A DNA stretch of 64,000 nucleotides from Planctomycetota bacterium (GTDB lineage: Bacteria; Planctomycetota; UBA1135; UBA2386). The position numbers and the translations under genes are program-made. The notes below the pieces were generated by a model. It did not search any database and was not told the origin of the DNA. It saw nothing but the letters and a program-made list of their open reading frames with translations. The stretch covers positions 3,712,001 through 3,776,000 of the forward strand of contig OZ245006.1 in NCBI GenBank assembly GCA_965223545.1, in the 5' to 3' direction. This document shows, piece after piece, positions 6,937 to 44,519 of this stretch (position 1 is its first letter; each line of letters opens with the position of its first letter).

Positions 6937-6961
6937 TCGAAGCCCGTCTCGGGGCCCGGAA

Positions 6962-7156
6962 GCGCGGCCGAGGCCGCAACCAAACTCGGATGCCGCTTTT
7001 CCCGGAGCGCTTTGGAAGGTCCGACCCATCCGCCGCCGCGCTGAGCCAGGAGGCACTGTCTCTCCGAGCCTCCGACGCGGCGGCGACGTTGCCATGTCAG
7101 CGGCGTCGCCTCGAAAATGTTGTCGAAGCTCGAAGATTCGAGGCGCCGGAGGCTCA
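6962..7156. mobile_element. MITE-like structured element, copy 1 (195 bp, between convergent genes)
   Basis: Aligns end to end with 10495-10690. Its terminal TCA supplies the TGA stop of the 7154..7972 gene. Contains multiple inverted repeats. Confidence 0.8.
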
Positions 7157-7972
7157 CCGGCCCCCGCGCGGGGTCGCACGCCGCGGCGCGGTCGCACGAT
7201 CCAGTGCATCACTGCGGATGTCGTCGTCGGTGCCGTCGTCACCGTCGGGGCCGAAAGAGCGGACCACCGCCTTGGCCGGAACGTTCGGGTCCTCGCCAAT
7301 GACGTACTCGTTGCCCCACGGGTCGCGCAGTGGTTCGGTCGCATCGAAGTAGCAGTGCCCGCGCTCATCCGGCGTGATCAGCCACTGCCAGAGCGGGATC
7401 TCACGCCGGTTGTTGAGCTGGAACAAGCGCACCGCGTTGAGCACGTCGCGGATCTCGCGGCGCGCCCGTCCGACCTCCGCGCTCATGGGTGGAGCTGGCC
7501 TTGCACTACCGTCATCGGCGACGGGGGTGACCGGGAGCTCGAGCGCGTGGTCGCCGAACGCGACGCGCAGCAGACCGTGTCCCGCATCGGCCCCCGAGGT
7601 CAACGTGCACTCCAGCCATGGCGCGTGCTCGGGCGATGCCTCGAACTCGAGGTCCCAGGACTCGTCGTTGCCCACGTCGCGGCAGAGCAGCAGCCACGTT
7701 TCGCCGCGGCGAAGCATGAGGAGGCGGTAGCCCCCCGCCTCCAGAGTCCGACCCGCCACGCGGACCGAGCCGCGGACATCCAGCGCGGCGAGCCGAGTTG
7801 CGGCCGCACTGGCGGTCCACGGCCGCGCAAGGTAGTCCAGATTCAACGCGGAGCCGCCCGCGAAGCGGATCGACTGACGGAGGAGCGGCGCGGCGTCCAG
7901 CTGTTGGGCCAAGCCTTGCTGGCTGGTGAGTTGCCAGAGCAGGACGGCAACTACGAGATGAATGCGATTCAT
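7154..7972 (-). CDS. Secreted protein: DUF2911-like N-terminal domain fused to a T2SS GspG-like C-terminal domain
   Basis: VAGRTLEAGGYRLL...W.L.L (DUF2911-like). DPWGNEY...VRSFGPDGDDGTDDDI (GspG Ca-binding signature). No prepilin G|FTLxE motif. Confidence 0.7.
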   Translation of the reverse strand: MNRIHLVVAVLLWQLTSQQGLAQQLDAAPLLRQSIRFAGGSALNLDYLARPWTASAAATRLAALDVRGSVRVAGRTLEAGGYRLLMLRRGETWLLLCRDVGNDESWDLEFEASPEHAPWLECTLTSGADAGHGLLRVAFGDHALELPVTPVADDGSARPAPPMSAEVGRARREIRDVLNAVRLFQLNNRREIPLWQWLITPDERGHCYFDATEPLRDPWGNEYVIGEDPNVPAKAVVRSFGPDGDDGTDDDIRSDALDRATAPRRATPRGGR

Positions 7973-9956: not shown

Positions 9957-11232
9957 ATGCCACGCTGCCTCGTTCCCGTCTTGCTGCTCTTGCCCGCGCT
10001 CGCGTCGGGGCAGTCGGTGGTGGTACCCGCGGCCTACGCCAACGCAGAGGCGCGCTCGCTCGGTGAAGTTCCGGGCTTCACCGGCCGCTTCCGCATGCAG
10101 GTCGTGGTCGATGGATCGACGCTTTCGAGCCTGGCGGGGCGAAGCCTGGACGGCATCTGGTTGCGCCGCGACCGCCAGTTCGACCGCGCCTACCCGGCTT
10201 CTTGGGCACAGCTGCGCGTCGGCGTGTCCCACGCGCGCACGACACCCTCGACCGCGTCGCCCGCGTTCATCGCAAACCATGCAGCAGTGCCCAGTATCGT
10301 CTTCGACGGCAACTTGACGCTGCCCAGCTCGCTGCCGACGCCGCCACCCTATCCCTGGCAGAGTCCGTTCGCGGTGCGCATCCCCTTCACACCGACGTTC
10401 GCTTACGCGGGCGGCCCGCTGTGCCTGGAGTTCGAGGGCGAGGTCGGCGCCCCGCAAGGAACCTTGTGGCCTGTCGACTTCTTCCAAGAGCTCAGCGCGG
10501 CCACGGCCGCAACCAAACTCGGATGCCGCTTGTTGGCGGAACAGCTCGGAAGGCCTGACACATCCGCCGCCGCGCTGAGCCAGGAGGCACTGTCTCTCCG
10601 AGCCTCCGGCGCGGCCGCGTCGCTGCCAGGGCAGCGGCGTCGCCTCGAAAGTGTTGTCGAAGCTCGAAGATTCGAGGCGCCGGAGGCTCATTGGCAGCAC
10701 GGTGCAGAAAGTCGGCGTGCCGTGTGGTGACACCACCTCCCGCATCGGTGTGACCGCGAACACGCGCGCACGAAACCTCGCGCCGGGGAGCTCGCTTCTG
10801 GTCTCCACGTTCGGCGAACCCGGGACTTCGGGGTTGTTGGCGCTCGGCTCGACGGCGACTCAAGTGCCTCTAGCCGCATTCGGGGCGCCGGGCTGCACGC
10901 TGTACCTACAGCCCGTCGCGACGCTGCCGTTCGCCTTCCCGCTCACTGGCACCCTCGACGCCGAACACACGATCGCGCTGGCGTTGCCTGGCAGCACGGG
11001 CCTACTCAATGCGGTCTTCTTCGCACAGGCGATCAACCTCGAGACACCCGGCCGCAGCAATCCCGCCGGCCTCACGACGACGAACGCGCTGCGGCTGCAA
11101 GTGGGGTCGGTGCCGCCACCCGCCACAATGACCGTCGTCGCCACACGAGCCGTCGCCGCTGGTGCGCCTTGGCCGGCGACTGGCGACGTGTTCGTTTCCC
11201 GTGGCCCGGTGCTGCGCTTCGACGCGCGTTGA
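9957..11232 (+). pseudogene. Secreted protein gene with the shared C-terminal domain, split by a 196-bp insertion
   Basis: The 5' half (9957..10730 frame) and 3' half (10651..11232 frame) rejoin in frame as ...VDFFQEL-IGSTVQKVGVPCG... when 10495-10690 is removed. Confidence 0.85.
10495..10690. mobile_element. MITE-like structured element, copy 2 (196 bp including one GCTCA repeat)
   Basis: GCTCA direct repeat at 10490-94 and 10686-90. Inverted repeats 10490-10501/10569-10580 (12 bp) and 10600-10612/10677-10689 (13 bp). Second copy at 6962-7156. Confidence 0.85.
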
Positions 11233-11258: not shown

Positions 11259-11276
11259 GGAGCCTGGCTCCGTACT
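11259..11276. repeat. Short REP-like palindromic repeat, variant copy
   Basis: GGAGCC-T-GGCTCC-GTACT has the same architecture as GAGTC-A-GACTC-CGTACT. Lies between convergent genes. Confidence 0.5.
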
Positions 11277-39343: not shown

Positions 39344-41392
39344 CTACTGCCCGCGGAGTTCGGCCAGGATCCGGTCGCCGCCGTAGACCCCGAGCGCCTG
39401 GACGATCGCATCGACGTGCACGGAGACCGCCCGCGGCACGCTGTCGGTATAGACGAACCGGTTCGGCAGCATCTCGATGTTGCCGTCGAAGACCAGGCCG
39501 ACGACCTCCAGCTGCCGGTTGACGATGCCACTGCCCGAGTTGCCACCGATGATGTCGTTGGTGCTGACGAAGTCGACGGCCGCGCTCATGTCGATCCGCT
39601 CCGCGGCGTCGATCCAGATCTGCGGCAGGCTGAACGGGTACTTGCCGTCGAACTCGGCGTGGCGCGCGTAGAGTCCGTAGAACGACGTGCGGTACGGCGC
39701 GATCGTGCCATTGAACGGAAAGCCGCGGACAACGCCGTCGCTGAAGCGCAGCGAGAAGGTCGCGTCCGGCGAGATCTTGTTGCCGTAGACCGCGAACAGC
39801 GCCCGGCCGACCTGCTCGCCGAGCGCCTCTTCCTGCTCGGCGAGCCAAGACTGCACTCGCTCCACGCCGCGCACCAGCCGATCGAGCACCAAGGCAATGC
39901 GCAGCGCCAGGTCGTCACTCTGCGCCAATGCGACCTCGTCCTGCGCCAACGCCTGGTCGACGAACGCCGCGTCCGCCATCCCGCCGCGTTCCAGCGCCTG
40001 CGCGATGTCCTCGGGTTCGCGCCCGTCGAGCAAGACGGCGCGGTACGGGTCGCTGCGCGGCAACCAGTCGGCGGCCCGCGCCAGGTGATCGATGAACGAA
40101 GCCCGCTCGTAGGCCGACATCTCCACCTGCATCTCGCGGGCGCTCACGGCGTGGGCCTCCCTGCGCGCGGCGGTGGGGGCGCGCACCGCGCGGACAATCT
40201 CGAGCGCGCGCGCCAGATGCTTGGAGCCACCCGGCGTGTGGAACCGCCGCTGCGGCTCGAGCGCGGTCTTCGCCGCGGCCACCTCTTCCAGGCGCTCCCA
40301 GAGCTGTCCGAACCGCTGCCGCAGACCGTCATCGGCGAACACGTGGCGGCGGAACTCGGCCTCGGCTTCGACCTTCGCTTGCATCAAGCGCTCGTCCAGC
40401 AGCCCGCCGTGGTAGCCGGCGTAGGCTTTCTGCGCGTTCTCGTAGTTGAGGATCTGCGGCCGCAGCGCGCGCTCTTGCTCCTCGTCGTCGGAAGCGAGCT
40501 GTCGCATCACTGCCAACCGGTTGTCGATCAGCTGGCGCACCATCGGGTAGGCGGCGTCGGCCAAGAAGTCCATCTGCGCTTTGGTCTTCAGCCGCTCGGT
40601 CGAACCCGGGTTGCCGGTGACGAACACAACCTCGCCCTCGATCGGGCCCGTGCTGCTCCAGCGAAAGTAGTGCGCCGCAGTGTCGGCGGGGGCGCCGTTC
40701 TCATAGGCGCGGCAAAAGGCGAAGTCGATGCTGTAGCGCGGGTAGGTGAAGTTGTCGGGATCGCCGCCGAAGTGCGCGATCTGCAGGTGTGGCGCGCACA
40801 CCAACCGCACGTCGGCGAACACCTTGTAGAGATACAGCTGATAGACCGCGCCCTGGTGCAGCGAGATGATCTCCGGTGTCAACTCGGGCTGCGCCGCCGA
40901 CGCCTCGGCTTCGATGCGCGCCCGGTTCTCCGCGCGCCGCGCGGCGGCATCGGCCGCCGGCATCTCGGACGTGATTCCGGCATTGATCTGGTCGGTGATG
41001 TCGCGCATCGAGACGAGCTGCTGCACGGTCAGGTCGGGGATCGGCACCTCCTCACCGAGGGCGGTGGCGTAGAACCCCGTCTTGACCCAGTCCTCGGCCG
41101 GCGGCGACACGGCGGCGATCTGACCACGCACGCAGTGGTGGTTGGTCATGATCAATCCCTTGGGCGAGACGAACGACGCCGAGCAGCCATCACCGAACCG
41201 CAGCGACGCGAGCCGCAGTGCGTCCAGCCATTCCTGGCTGGGCTTGAAGCCGTACTCCTTCTCCAGGTACGCCAGCGGTGGATTCTCGAAGGTCCACATC
41301 TTGCCCAGCTCGAGCTTGCCCTGGGCCGGCGCCGTGGCCGCGGAAAGGACGAGGACAGCGAGCGCGGAAGAACGAAGAGCGAGTCCTGTCAT
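39344..41392 (-). CDS. S46 family dipeptidyl peptidase (copy 1)
   Basis: GKMWT, CSASFVS..GL..TNHHC, FGGDPDNF.YPR, PDATFSLR, DIIGGNSGS and FDGN motifs. Confidence 0.93.
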   Translation of the reverse strand: MTGLALRSSALAVLVLSAATAPAQGKLELGKMWTFENPPLAYLEKEYGFKPSQEWLDALRLASLRFGDGCSASFVSPKGLIMTNHHCVRGQIAAVSPPAEDWVKTGFYATALGEEVPIPDLTVQQLVSMRDITDQINAGITSEMPAADAAARRAENRARIEAEASAAQPELTPEIISLHQGAVYQLYLYKVFADVRLVCAPHLQIAHFGGDPDNFTYPRYSIDFAFCRAYENGAPADTAAHYFRWSSTGPIEGEVVFVTGNPGSTERLKTKAQMDFLADAAYPMVRQLIDNRLAVMRQLASDDEEQERALRPQILNYENAQKAYAGYHGGLLDERLMQAKVEAEAEFRRHVFADDGLRQRFGQLWERLEEVAAAKTALEPQRRFHTPGGSKHLARALEIVRAVRAPTAARREAHAVSAREMQVEMSAYERASFIDHLARAADWLPRSDPYRAVLLDGREPEDIAQALERGGMADAAFVDQALAQDEVALAQSDDLALRIALVLDRLVRGVERVQSWLAEQEEALGEQVGRALFAVYGNKISPDATFSLRFSDGVVRGFPFNGTIAPYRTSFYGLYARHAEFDGKYPFSLPQIWIDAAERIDMSAAVDFVSTNDIIGGNSGSGIVNRQLEVVGLVFDGNIEMLPNRFVYTDSVPRAVSVHVDAIVQALGVYGGDRILAELRGQ

Positions 41393-41437
41393 GGCTGTTG
41401 GAGGGGCGGGGGACGACCCGGCAACGGGTCGTCGGAT

Positions 41438-42424
41438 TCAGTCGTAGGCGATCGCGCTGTAGCGCATCAGCTTCTCGAGACGGTGGCGGGATTCGATGTA
41501 GCGCACCGTGCCCGAGCGCCCGCGCATCACCAGCGAGTGGGTGATGGCGCCGGACCGCGTGTAGCTGACGCCGCGCAAGAAGGTGCCGCCGGAGATGCCG
41601 GTGGCGGCAAGGAACGTGTCGTCGCTGCCGACCAGGCGGTCCAGGTCGAGGATCTCGTCGACATCGGTCCCCGCTTCGGCGAGCTGCGTCCGCTCGGCGT
41701 CACTCTGTGGATCGAGACGGGCCAGCATCTCGCCGCCGATCGAACGGATCGCCGTCGCCGCCAGCACGCCCTCCGGAGTGCCGCCCGTGCCCATCATCAC
41801 GTCGACTTCGGACGTCGGGTCGACGGCCATCAGCGCACCCGCGACGTCGCCGTCGGTGTGCAGCTGGATGCGCGCGCCGCTCGCGCGGATCCGACCGATC
41901 AGCTCGCGGTGCCGTGGCTTGTCCAAGACGAAGACGACCAGGTCGTCGACGTCCTTGCCCAACGCCTGCGCCACGCTGGCGAGATTGGTCTCCACCGAAG
42001 CATCGAGGTCGACCGTACCGGCGGCGGCCGCCGGCACGACCAGCTTCTGCATGTAGTAGCTGGGCCCAGGATCGTACATCGTGCCCGCCGGCGCGATGCC
42101 GACGACCGCGATGGCGTTCGGCCGGCCCAGCGCCAGCAGATTGGTGCCTTCCACCGGGTCGACGGCGACGTCGACCGCGGGCCCGTCGCCGGTACCGACG
42201 TCCTCGCCGTTGAACAGCATCGGCGCCTCGTCTTTCTCGCCTTCGCCGATGATGACCCGGCCGCGGATCTCAAGGCTGCCGAACATGAAGCGCATCGCCT
42301 CGACCGCGGCCCGATCACCGTCGTTCTTGGCGCCCTTGCCGAGCCATCGCCCGGCACTGAGTGCCGCGGACTCGGTCACGCGAACGAGGTCGAGGGCGAG
42401 ATTGCGGTCTGGGGCAAGGCTCAT
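41438..42424 (-). CDS. glpX: Class II fructose-1,6-bisphosphatase
   Basis: DRNLALDLVRVTE.AAL, IGEGEKDEAPML, DPVEGT, DGDVAG, GGTPEGV and ATGI motifs. Confidence 0.95.
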   Translation of the reverse strand: MSLAPDRNLALDLVRVTESAALSAGRWLGKGAKNDGDRAAVEAMRFMFGSLEIRGRVIIGEGEKDEAPMLFNGEDVGTGDGPAVDVAVDPVEGTNLLALGRPNAIAVVGIAPAGTMYDPGPSYYMQKLVVPAAAAGTVDLDASVETNLASVAQALGKDVDDLVVFVLDKPRHRELIGRIRASGARIQLHTDGDVAGALMAVDPTSEVDVMMGTGGTPEGVLAATAIRSIGGEMLARLDPQSDAERTQLAEAGTDVDEILDLDRLVGSDDTFLAATGISGGTFLRGVSYTRSGAITHSLVMRGRSGTVRYIESRHRLEKLMRYSAIAYD

Positions 42425-42455
42425 GACGGGCTATCGGGGCGGTGGGCGAAGGCCG

Positions 42456-44519
42456 TCAGTTTGCGGCGCCGGCGCGTAGCTCGTCCAGCACCCGCTGCGC
42501 CTCATAGATCACCTGCAGCGATTCTTCGATCGCCTCGACGTGCACCGACACCGACCGCTGGCTGTCACTGCGAAAGACGAAGCGGTTGGCGAGCTGCTCG
42601 ATGTTCCCATCGAAGATCAAGCCGACGACGCGGAGCTCCGTATCCACCACCGGGCTGCCGGAGTTGCCGCCGATGATGTCGTTGGTGCTGACGAAGTTGA
42701 CCGCCTTGCGCATGTCGACGCGGTCTTGGCGTTCGAGCCACAGCTCCGGCAGGTGGAACGGGTCCTGATTGCCGAACTCGGTATTGCGTGCGAACAAGCC
42801 GTAGAACGTGGTGCGGTAGGGAGCCAGCGTCCCGTTGTAGGGGTAGCGCAGCACGCGGCCGTCGCTGAAGCGCAACGTCATCGTCGCATCCGGGCTGATC
42901 GAGTCCCCGTACACGGCATACAAGGCCTGGCCGACGAGCTGCTCCTGCGAAGCCTCGCGCGCCGCGATCTCCTCGGAACGCCGCAGGTTCTCCGCCATCA
43001 TCGGCACCAGCTGGCGCGCGACGACGACAGCGTGGTCTTCCGACGCGTTCACCGCCTCCATCCCGCCTCCGAGCAGCGCTTGCACCAGCTCCGGATCGCC
43101 GATCTTGCTACCGGCCAGCAGCACCGAGGCCATCGCCGCCGGACCATTGCCGGTCAACAACGCCACGTACGGGTCCTCCTCGCCGAGCCAACGCACCGCC
43201 AAGTTGACGTGATCGATGAACAGCGCCTGCTGCAACGGGCTCATGCCCACCTCGATCTCACCGACCATTTCGCGCGCGATCTCGCGCTCTTCCTCACTGG
43301 TCTGCGGATCGACGGCCTGCACGATGGCGACCGCCTTTGCCAGGTGCGGCGAATAGCTCGGCACTTGCAGCTGCAGCTTGGCCTCGAGCGCAGTCTTCTC
43401 GGCGGCGAGATCGGCCAGCGACGACCAGACTCCACCGAAACGCTCGGCCAGCGCGGGCTCGGCCTCGACGGCGGCGCGGAACTCCCCCTCGAACGCGCGC
43501 TTCTGCTGCATCAGGGTCTCGTCCTGCAGACCACCGAGATAACCGTCCAGCGCCTTCACCGAGTTTTCGTCGCCGAGAATGATCGTGCGCAGCTGCTCCT
43601 CGAGCACCGGAAACCGCCGGACGAAGTCGCGCAGGATCGCCAACCGGCTGCGCAACAAACCCAGCGTCACCGGGTAGTTCGCATCCCGCATGTACTCCAT
43701 CTGTGCCGTGGTCAGCAGCCGCCCGGTCGAGCCCGGATTGCCGGTGACGAACACCAAGTCCCCCTCGCCCGCACCGGCCGAGTTCCACCGGAAGTAGTGC
43801 GCGCCAGTGTCGGCGGGCTCGCCGTCGACGTAGGCCCGGCAGAAAGCGAAATCGATGCTGTAGCGCGGGTAGGTGAAGTTGTCGGGATCGCCACCGAAGT
43901 GCGCGGTCTGCAGATGCGGGGCACACACCAGCCGCACGTCGTCATAGACGTTGTAGAGGTAGAGGTGGTACGCGGCGCCTTGGTGCAGCTTGACGATCTC
44001 CGGCTTGAGGCCCGGGTGGTCCGCCTTGGCAGCGGCGAGGATCGCCTTCTGATTGGCATCCCGCTGCTCGGCCGCGGCCGCGTCGTCCAACCCCTCGGTG
44101 GCTTCGAGCATTGCTTGGGTGACGTCGCGGGTCGACGCCAGCTGCTGCACGGTCAGCCCCGGAATCCGCACCTCGTCTTCGAGCGATCGCGCGTAGAAGC
44201 CGTGCTTGACCCAGTCCTCCCCCGGCGGTGACACCTCGGCGATGTTGTCGCGCACGCAGTGGTGGTTGGTCATGATCAACCCCTTGGGCGACACGAACGA
44301 CGCCGAGCACCAATCGCCGAAGCGCAGTGAGGCCAGGCGGAGCGCGGCCAGCCAGTCGGCATCGGCTGCAAACCCGTACTCCTCTTCGAGATAGGCGAGC
44401 GGTGGGTTTTCGAACGTCCACATCTTGCCCAGCTCGAGCTGGATCTGGGCGCGTGTCGGGGCGGCGGCCAGGGCCAGGGCGATCAGCGCCGCGGGCCCAC
44501 GCAGAACGGTCATGTGCAT
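42456..44519 (-). CDS. S46 family dipeptidyl peptidase (copy 2)
   Basis: Same motifs as copy 1 (TNHHC, DIIGGNSGSPV, FDGN). Start ATG 44519 or 44513. Confidence 0.93.
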   Translation of the reverse strand: MHMTVLRGPAALIALALAAAPTRAQIQLELGKMWTFENPPLAYLEEEYGFAADADWLAALRLASLRFGDWCSASFVSPKGLIMTNHHCVRDNIAEVSPPGEDWVKHGFYARSLEDEVRIPGLTVQQLASTRDVTQAMLEATEGLDDAAAAEQRDANQKAILAAAKADHPGLKPEIVKLHQGAAYHLYLYNVYDDVRLVCAPHLQTAHFGGDPDNFTYPRYSIDFAFCRAYVDGEPADTGAHYFRWNSAGAGEGDLVFVTGNPGSTGRLLTTAQMEYMRDANYPVTLGLLRSRLAILRDFVRRFPVLEEQLRTIILGDENSVKALDGYLGGLQDETLMQQKRAFEGEFRAAVEAEPALAERFGGVWSSLADLAAEKTALEAKLQLQVPSYSPHLAKAVAIVQAVDPQTSEEEREIAREMVGEIEVGMSPLQQALFIDHVNLAVRWLGEEDPYVALLTGNGPAAMASVLLAGSKIGDPELVQALLGGGMEAVNASEDHAVVVARQLVPMMAENLRRSEEIAAREASQEQLVGQALYAVYGDSISPDATMTLRFSDGRVLRYPYNGTLAPYRTTFYGLFARNTEFGNQDPFHLPELWLERQDRVDMRKAVNFVSTNDIIGGNSGSPVVDTELRVVGLIFDGNIEQLANRFVFRSDSQRSVSVHVEAIEESLQVIYEAQRVLDELRAGAAN

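Follow-up and report, generated by a model that had tools for sequence, protein, structure and literature searches.

We describe a family of short mobile DNA elements, found through a copy that interrupts a gene in the 8.1-Mb genome of a Planctomycetota bacterium. The family is undescribed in Rfam and in the literature that we covered, which left out subscription papers; it resembles IS91/IS608- or REP-type units and fails membership of each. Its members are multicopy and oriented, with fixed ends, a right-hand target (CTCA(G) or CCCA) that is kept, a left-hand word of their own and a conserved structure. We give an even chance to the proposal that these elements move as single strands by means of an HUH-type enzyme acting in trans, that their arrays arise by re-insertion at the surviving target, and that a triplet at the foot of a stem aids target choice. 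Below, the window is the whole 64,000-nucleotide stretch analysed, G000 is the source genome, C1 is its contig, and G009, G017 and similar labels denote relative genomes of the same family.

The gene at 9957..11232 of the window was split by a 196-bp net insertion at 10495..10690 (+ strand), consisting of one element plus one CTCA. Its 5' half (9957..10493, +) encodes a secreted-type protein without a Pfam match and its 3' half lies at 10690..11232 (+); both were traceable to one formerly whole gene. An earlier note on this DNA had claimed that precise removal restores the reading frame, and deletion of the 196 bp indeed gave a single frame of 359 codons with FFQEL-IGS at the joint. Uninterrupted homologues agreed with this: two G000 paralogues (C1, 6.824 and 6.839 Mb) were exactly collinear with the two halves, no residues being inserted or missing where these meet, and their spacing was exactly that of the joined frame. 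Three further G000 paralogues matched both halves with small gaps, and 89 of the 91 family genomes searched contained relatives of the 5' half. These paralogue and family searches superseded a protein database search in which none of 4896 candidates was a longer protein matching the 5' half. The insert length does equal the frame offset (3n+1), as had been pointed out, but this is uninformative, because any clean insertion gives it; 196 bp is a length peculiar to this copy, the main classes of the family being 195 and 201 bp.

Short-read contigs from the source sample spanned both insert junctions without differences. The empty junction that the earlier note had proposed to look for in reads was not seen in contigs from 4 of the 13 source-sample runs, three of these four being patchily covered. 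A joint from 10690 to 10490, as expected of a circle, was present in the contigs but is explained by chromosomal tandems. The insertion landed in a coding CTCA, and the gene is best read as inactivated; a precise reversal is conceivable in principle and was unobserved.

The structural features of the insert were located where they had been reported. GCTCA occurs at 10490-94 and 10686-90, and the left arm (10490..10580, +) is closed by the stem 10490-10501/10569-10580, which includes TGAGCC at 10576-81. Within the left arm, a small end hairpin (GCGGCC-NN-GGCCGC, then AACC; 10497..10514, +) is the most conserved motif of the family. A short central hairpin (10583..10597, +) separates this arm from the right arm (10600..10689, +), which has the stem 10600-10612/10677-10689 and inner hairpins, including 10663-10676, 10 bases before the core. 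The left core CTCA lies at 10491..10494 (+) and the right core CTCA at 10687..10690 (+; TGAG on the other strand), and GAG (10600..10602, +), located at the right-arm foot, pairs with CTC of the right core. The predicted fold was strong on both strands (z = -4.88 on the + strand and -3.87 on the - strand), and none of 200 shuffles was equally stable. This copy belongs to the most diverged class, aA, with 93% identity to its nearest relative. A second copy in the window (6957..7156, +; 90%) has a degenerate left core, and its terminal TCA is the TGA stop codon of an ORF at 7154-7972 (-). The Y1, Y2 and IS110 hits of G000 all lay outside the window, in agreement, for these three families, with the earlier statement that it contains no transposase. 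Elsewhere in the window, a 1-kb stretch at 35-1045 is duplicated in another part of G000, and 39400-44400 contains two internal duplications.

Other copies in G000 were collected by BLAST and profile searches, in which end or centre motifs formed 164 clusters, and full units were then delimited with a motif parser. At least 120 full units were obtained at 80 loci: 53 single, 17 double, 9 triple and one six-fold, so that 27 of the 80 were tandem. Unit lengths were mainly 195 bp (44/120), 201 bp (40/120) and 198 bp (8/120), and the units were combinations of three left-arm and two right-arm types. Neighbouring units in tandem shared one CTCA, and in 20 of 40 cases the neighbours were of different subtypes. 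Each unit's closest match at another place had a median identity of 96%, and 6 of the 120 units reached at least 99.5%. The idea that the lengths 195, 198 and 201, as multiples of three, reflect in-frame insertion was discarded, because the periods differ in relatives and a stop codon in the phase of the interrupted gene is present in 43 of the 44 units of 195 bp.

As a rule the element is extragenic. Only one of the 80 G000 loci was called inside an intact gene, indicating that genes do not tolerate copies. Antisense positions immediately behind the stop codon of a gene account for about half of the loci. Forty loci point each way relative to replication, without a leading or lagging bias. 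These locations bear on the suggestion that the element is excised from RNA. An element spliced from mRNA, or spread through an RNA intermediate with the help of a group II intron reverse transcriptase, would explain why clean removal restores the frame; G000 has 14 group II intron copies, and many elements would be transcribed, sitting as they do behind stop codons. However, neither the window nor five relative loci matched Rfam, the copy at 10495 is oriented opposite to the usual transcribed sense, and the stems show no notable G.T excess on either strand (13 vs 21). The near-absence of copies from intact genes, the antisense position of about half of them and the lack of an empty junction in the contigs examined also speak against excision from RNA, and the element is too short to hold a group II core. 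We consider an RNA-level origin highly improbable.

Copies were also found in relatives: 5 in G009, 65 hits in G017, 67 in G018 and 47 motif hits in G050, and a 140-bp form in G069 (42 copies), G070 (4) and G071 (52). Two metagenome contigs also carry the element. This range is a lower bound, since the exact central pattern matched 2 of 301 genomes and a covariance model, applied to just 27 candidates in each genome, matched 7 of 91, and the copies in G069-71 were detectable only with the end motif. Searches with the relatives' right-end pattern gave matches at chance level, and 23 pattern matches in viral contigs included no full element. In G009, copies at L028:1426-1812, L035:1426-1624 and L046:1501-1700 lie at stop/start overlaps or at starts, where they provide the gene downstream with a new ATG; at all three complete sites the end repeats measured 8-9 bases.

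Across aligned copies the terminal stems are held while the arm interiors diverge, with 96.5% of cells paired. Four pairs showed two-sided change, and the covariation score was reached by none of 500 shuffles, a control that is inflated by sequence kinship. The covariation foreseen in the earlier note was found; the Rfam match that it proposed to look for was not.

The two ends differ in origin. In G000, the preference for a GCTCA-like site held for its CTCA part, which was present at 64 of 70 left and 66 of 72 right ends and at both ends of 52 of 63 arrays; the preceding G was not enriched elsewhere (23/57 seen vs 29 expected), and flanks beyond the core were weakly biased. G017 separated the ends: its outer right ends carried CTCA in 30 of 32 cases, followed by G in 26, whereas its outer left ends carried it in 0 of 33 and read CCTA in 20 (Fisher p 1.6e-16). 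Tandem junctions in G017 followed the left ends (CCTA 8, CCGA 3 and CTCA 2 of 15), and G018 showed the same trend (CTCA at 23/41 right vs 9/37 left ends). Moreover, with genes called by our own gene caller, the TGA read on the other strand of the right end coincided with a called stop codon at 36 of 72 G000 ends, against a background of 5.3% and a neutral-site expectation of 22%; by a looser test it did so at 15 of 28 ends in G017 and 16 of 24 in G018. Such an excess is expected if the right-end bases are those of the host. Together, the end contrast in G017 and G018 and the right-end stop codons indicate that the right word is the host target, that the left word travels with the element, and that there is no regular target duplication. 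By the G017 pattern, the CTCA at 10687..10690 would thus be host target, and that at 10491..10494 would be the element's own tetranucleotide, its first C possibly host-derived. The first core base was C at all 32 right ends and at 27 of 33 left ends in G017; being invariant on the right and less constrained on the left, it points to strand exchange at or just after this base.

These data also bear on an ordinary DDE-type MITE with a 4-bp target duplication and decayed left ends. Such an element would account for CTCA at both ends of most G000 arrays, and a few copies in G050 (18 vs 15.5 expected) and G071 (6 vs 2.7) share the same rare variant at both ends in a duplication-like manner (p about 0.01, several G071 rows being parsed with register slips); none did so in G017, G018 or G069/70. 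However, the total absence of CTCA from G017 left ends, which equal the junction core, largely refutes this reading. The element also has no classical terminal inverted repeat, as the earlier note had stated (the best 12-base end match averages 7.5 vs 5.9 for random pairs), and its orientation is fixed at a non-palindromic site. We agree with that note that the element is non-autonomous and regard a DDE MITE as very unlikely. No exact empty paralogous site was found for the 63 G000 arrays, one REP-flank case being approximate (75%). In the orthologue tests, one G050 site, of two loci, was empty in two congeners that are too diverged for the core to be read. No strain polymorphism was shown: G000 contained each of the three loose-end flanks examined.

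The segment proposed by the earlier note to pick the target was the internal TGAGC, complementary to both junctions. Its pairing with the left junction was seen, but the right junction folds instead with GAG at 10600-02. The CTCA/TGAG part of the left-arm stem was limited to G000, G009 and the two metagenome copies, one of which has a compensatory change from G-C to T-A beside TGAG; because TGAG is absent there from the copies of G017, G018, G050 and G069-71, it is not a general guide. In contrast to TGAG, the right-stem foot triplet was retained everywhere, as GAG or GGG in 103 of 112 parsed arrays. GAG arrays had a middle T in the right word in 35 of 36 cases; GGG arrays had a middle C in 50 of 67, a wobble-pairing CTC in 8 and CAC or CGC in 9. 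Within one genus, GAG went with T in 14/14 and GGG with C in 28/38; a single GCG copy ends in CGC, and a lone GAG copy among the GGG copies of G050 ends in CTCA. Target choice by base pairing is thus compatible with the GAG/CTC vs GGG/CCC covariation, whereas the segment first named for it was the wrong one, and GAG at 10600..10602, replaced by GGG in CCCA-ended lineages, becomes the candidate guide.

Because the right word is host-derived in G017, the covariation may be read as guide-directed targeting, with which it is compatible; the lineages are few and may represent only one or two switches. It may instead be an inherited stem, CCCA in GGG lineages being only putatively host-derived. Internal bases of G000 copies beyond the core did not predict flank bases. 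A bolder reading, in which the element is a self-guiding mobile DNA whose stem-foot triplet would select the site by Watson-Crick pairing and has been naturally reprogrammed (GAG to CTCA, GGG to CCCA), with a mover outside the known Y1, Y2 and IS110 partners, seems to us unlikely; the last point follows from genomes that have about 50 copies and show no Y1 gene.

IS110-type bridge recombination had been offered as another possible route. G000 contains 38 IS110 hits, and 14 of the 15 copies of families B and C lie inside the element: 10 of 11 family B copies just behind the left hairpin (after the equivalent of 10513) and 4 of 4 family C copies at the foot of the right stem. The element is thus the target of these two families and not their offspring; REPs are likewise targets of ISPpu9 (PMC12288879). 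A non-autonomous IS110-family unit of the bridge- or seek-RNA type, moved by a resident IS110 recombinase, would fit the size of about 200 nt, the two large arms, the circle-type tandem junctions and the abundance of IS110, and the described part of MITEPpu9/ISPpu9 offers a parallel in a small structured non-autonomous unit with a MITE-like small-RNA module and tandem copies (PMC12288879). However, the ends of the resident IS110s are unlike those of the element; the IS110 target comprises 11-14 bases recognised through internal loop guides, whereas the flank consensus of the element is only 4-5 bases; no internal segment tracks the flank bases; and the complementary segment is part of a stem and not of a loop. 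We therefore consider this origin decidedly unlikely.

Several observations on the IS110s stand apart from this question. At C1 6847323-6851339, families B and C, which target different points of the element, are nested at one locus. In the left non-coding region of family B, short words match both target sides and its own ends by eye, in a bridge-RNA-like manner. Units at C1 537270 and 611310 retain a 5-base remnant of the left end of family B at the insertion point, an apparent footprint of imprecise excision. A separate family of short REP-like palindromes, represented in the window at 11260-11275 (also 13, 3525 and 57868), gave about 250 matches in G000 vs 2 in a reversed control; it flanks RAYT-HTH genes and is the apparent landing site of IS110 family A, which has 23-28 copies.

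No partner enzyme was linked to the element in G000 or the relatives searched. Longer copies with their own recombinase, which the earlier note had proposed to seek, were not found in G000, where every long left-to-right span was an IS110 insertion. The Y1 genes of G000 comprise two RAYT-HTH genes and one 12-copy family, each with repeats of its own. Searches for the RAYT-HTH family found nothing in G017, G050 or G069-71, and those for the multicopy Y1 family nothing in G018 or G069-71; PF01797 was matched in none of 5 genomes, including G069-G071, though G071 (6 contigs, 88%) has about 50 copies. One copy lies behind a degenerate G017 Y1 gene, whose own repeats differ. Y2 hits occurred in 9 of 12 genomes, and none of the 25 Y2 loci shared end similarity with the element. 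TnpB (PF07282) was absent from the matches in 6 genomes, as was RRXRR, for which the positive control was equally silent, and iterated Y1/Y2 profiles recovered no further HUH gene in G000. A one-sequence profile gave seven tyrosine-recombinase hits in G000, of XerC/D and phage type by inspection and at least 8 kb from any copy. The genomes are 73-94% complete, and these negatives are failures to find and no proof of absence.

Other features of the Y1 and Y2 genes were recorded. A copy at G018 L165:1271-1462 ends 3 bases before the start codon of the only Y1 hit of G018 (a RAYT with other repeats), to which it may supply a ribosome site. The multicopy RAYT-like Y1 genes, at 12 C1 loci of G000 (e.g. 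2260094 and 6129588; L003-L010), have modular arrays of hairpins ahead of them, and the 14-copy group II intron has inserted into these arrays repeatedly, in both orientations; this Y1 protein family was present in 29 of 73 genomes searched. At L430, L431, L438 and L443 (G018, G071), the Y2 transposase of IS91-like elements has a gene for a tyrosine recombinase immediately upstream.

The oriented short target, the element's own word at the other end, the hairpin ends and the absence of duplication form a signature common to HUH single-strand transposons. IS91 has its own CTCG at terIS and a target, CTTG/GTTC, beside oriIS, and makes no duplication (PMC13181058). The element likewise has its own tetranucleotide at one end (CTCA, CCTA, CTCG or CCCA) and a target tetranucleotide at the other without duplication, and it shares with IS91 the T at position 2 in CTCA and subterminal palindromes (PMC13181058). 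This layout was found in G017, with exceptions in G050 and G071. Unlike IS91, the element has no transposase gene and no oriIS-like end, the ends of the local Y2 elements differ from its own, and its target pairs with an internal triplet.

With IS200/IS605 members (IS608, ISDra2) it shares oriented insertion by a conserved tetranucleotide, its own terminal tetranucleotide, hairpin ends and the idea of a DNA guide, which IS608 is described as using (PMC6006769, PMC8266576). Their guide lies 5' of a subterminal hairpin and acts by cross pairing, whereas the triplet of the element extends the terminal stem by plain pairing; in the alignments, no guide-type conserved word was seen by eye at a hairpin foot, the pairing observed being that of a linear triplet. 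Unlike IS200/IS605, it came with no TnpA-IS200 or TnpB, the Y1 hits being RAYT-like with other repeats, and unlike IS608 it has no replication-strand bias.

The high copy number, extragenic location, clustered tandem mosaic arrays and use as an IS110 target recall REP/BIME/REPIN units; TnpA-REP (RAYT) is reported to build tandem mosaics, and its C|T cleavage fits C|TCA (PMC8266576, PMC3333891). The class 3 REPs of Planctomycetes listed by Quentin et al. have CnGA(G) feet (PMC6006769 supplement 2), similar to CTGAG/CCGAG in the centre of the element, a feature of G000/G009-type copies only that is lost in relatives. Unlike REPs, the element has no GTAG tag and occurs as 140-205 bp units in direct orientation with exact ends; no RAYT gene was flanked by its copies, and no class 3 TnpA motif was found in G000.

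A further possibility is that the right arm has the fold of an attC site, as in integrons, and that single-strand circles are inserted at C|TCA by a tyrosine recombinase, as cassettes are by IntI at G|WT. In favour of this, the folds of G017, G018 and G050 copies show a foot stem, a short unpaired spacer, a second stem and a variable top; the first core base, fixed right and variable left in G017, fits the cut position; the arrays are of mixed units; and IS110 family C inserts at the stem foot. Integron cassettes inserted at attG are likewise described as folded single strands with a short core cut after its first base, in arrays and without strand bias (10.1101/2022.09.11.507474). However, the core is CTC/CCC rather than GTT/AAC, the copies are scattered, the G017 junction core pairs poorly with GAG, and inspection of the seven distant tyrosine recombinases of G000 recognised no integron integrase. 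We judge an attC-like substrate unlikely.

We thus favour single-strand movement by an HUH-type enzyme, in a confidence that the absence of strand bias and of a partner lowers. In this model, the non-autonomous 140-205 bp element would move as one folded DNA strand, passing through a single-strand circle whose junction consists of the right end, the element's own tetranucleotide and the left end. A Y1- or Y2-like tyrosine enzyme supplied in trans would cut and join the circle through one strand exchange, at the first core C or immediately behind it, and the triplet at the right-stem foot may pair with the target and so help to choose the site. Because the target survives insertion, later copies could land there again and so build up head-to-tail arrays in which subtypes are mixed.

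The exact ends of the element, unlike those of REPs, mean that the spread of bacterial palindromic repeats can be asked about precisely, and its natural pairs of guide triplet and end sequence allow a direct test of retargeting. With the enzyme missing from among the usual suspects, its identification might uncover either a novel single-strand transposase or a host enzyme put to a novel use. For the genomes that carry it, the element has shaped the 3' ends of genes, provided landing pads for two IS110 families and broken at least one gene.
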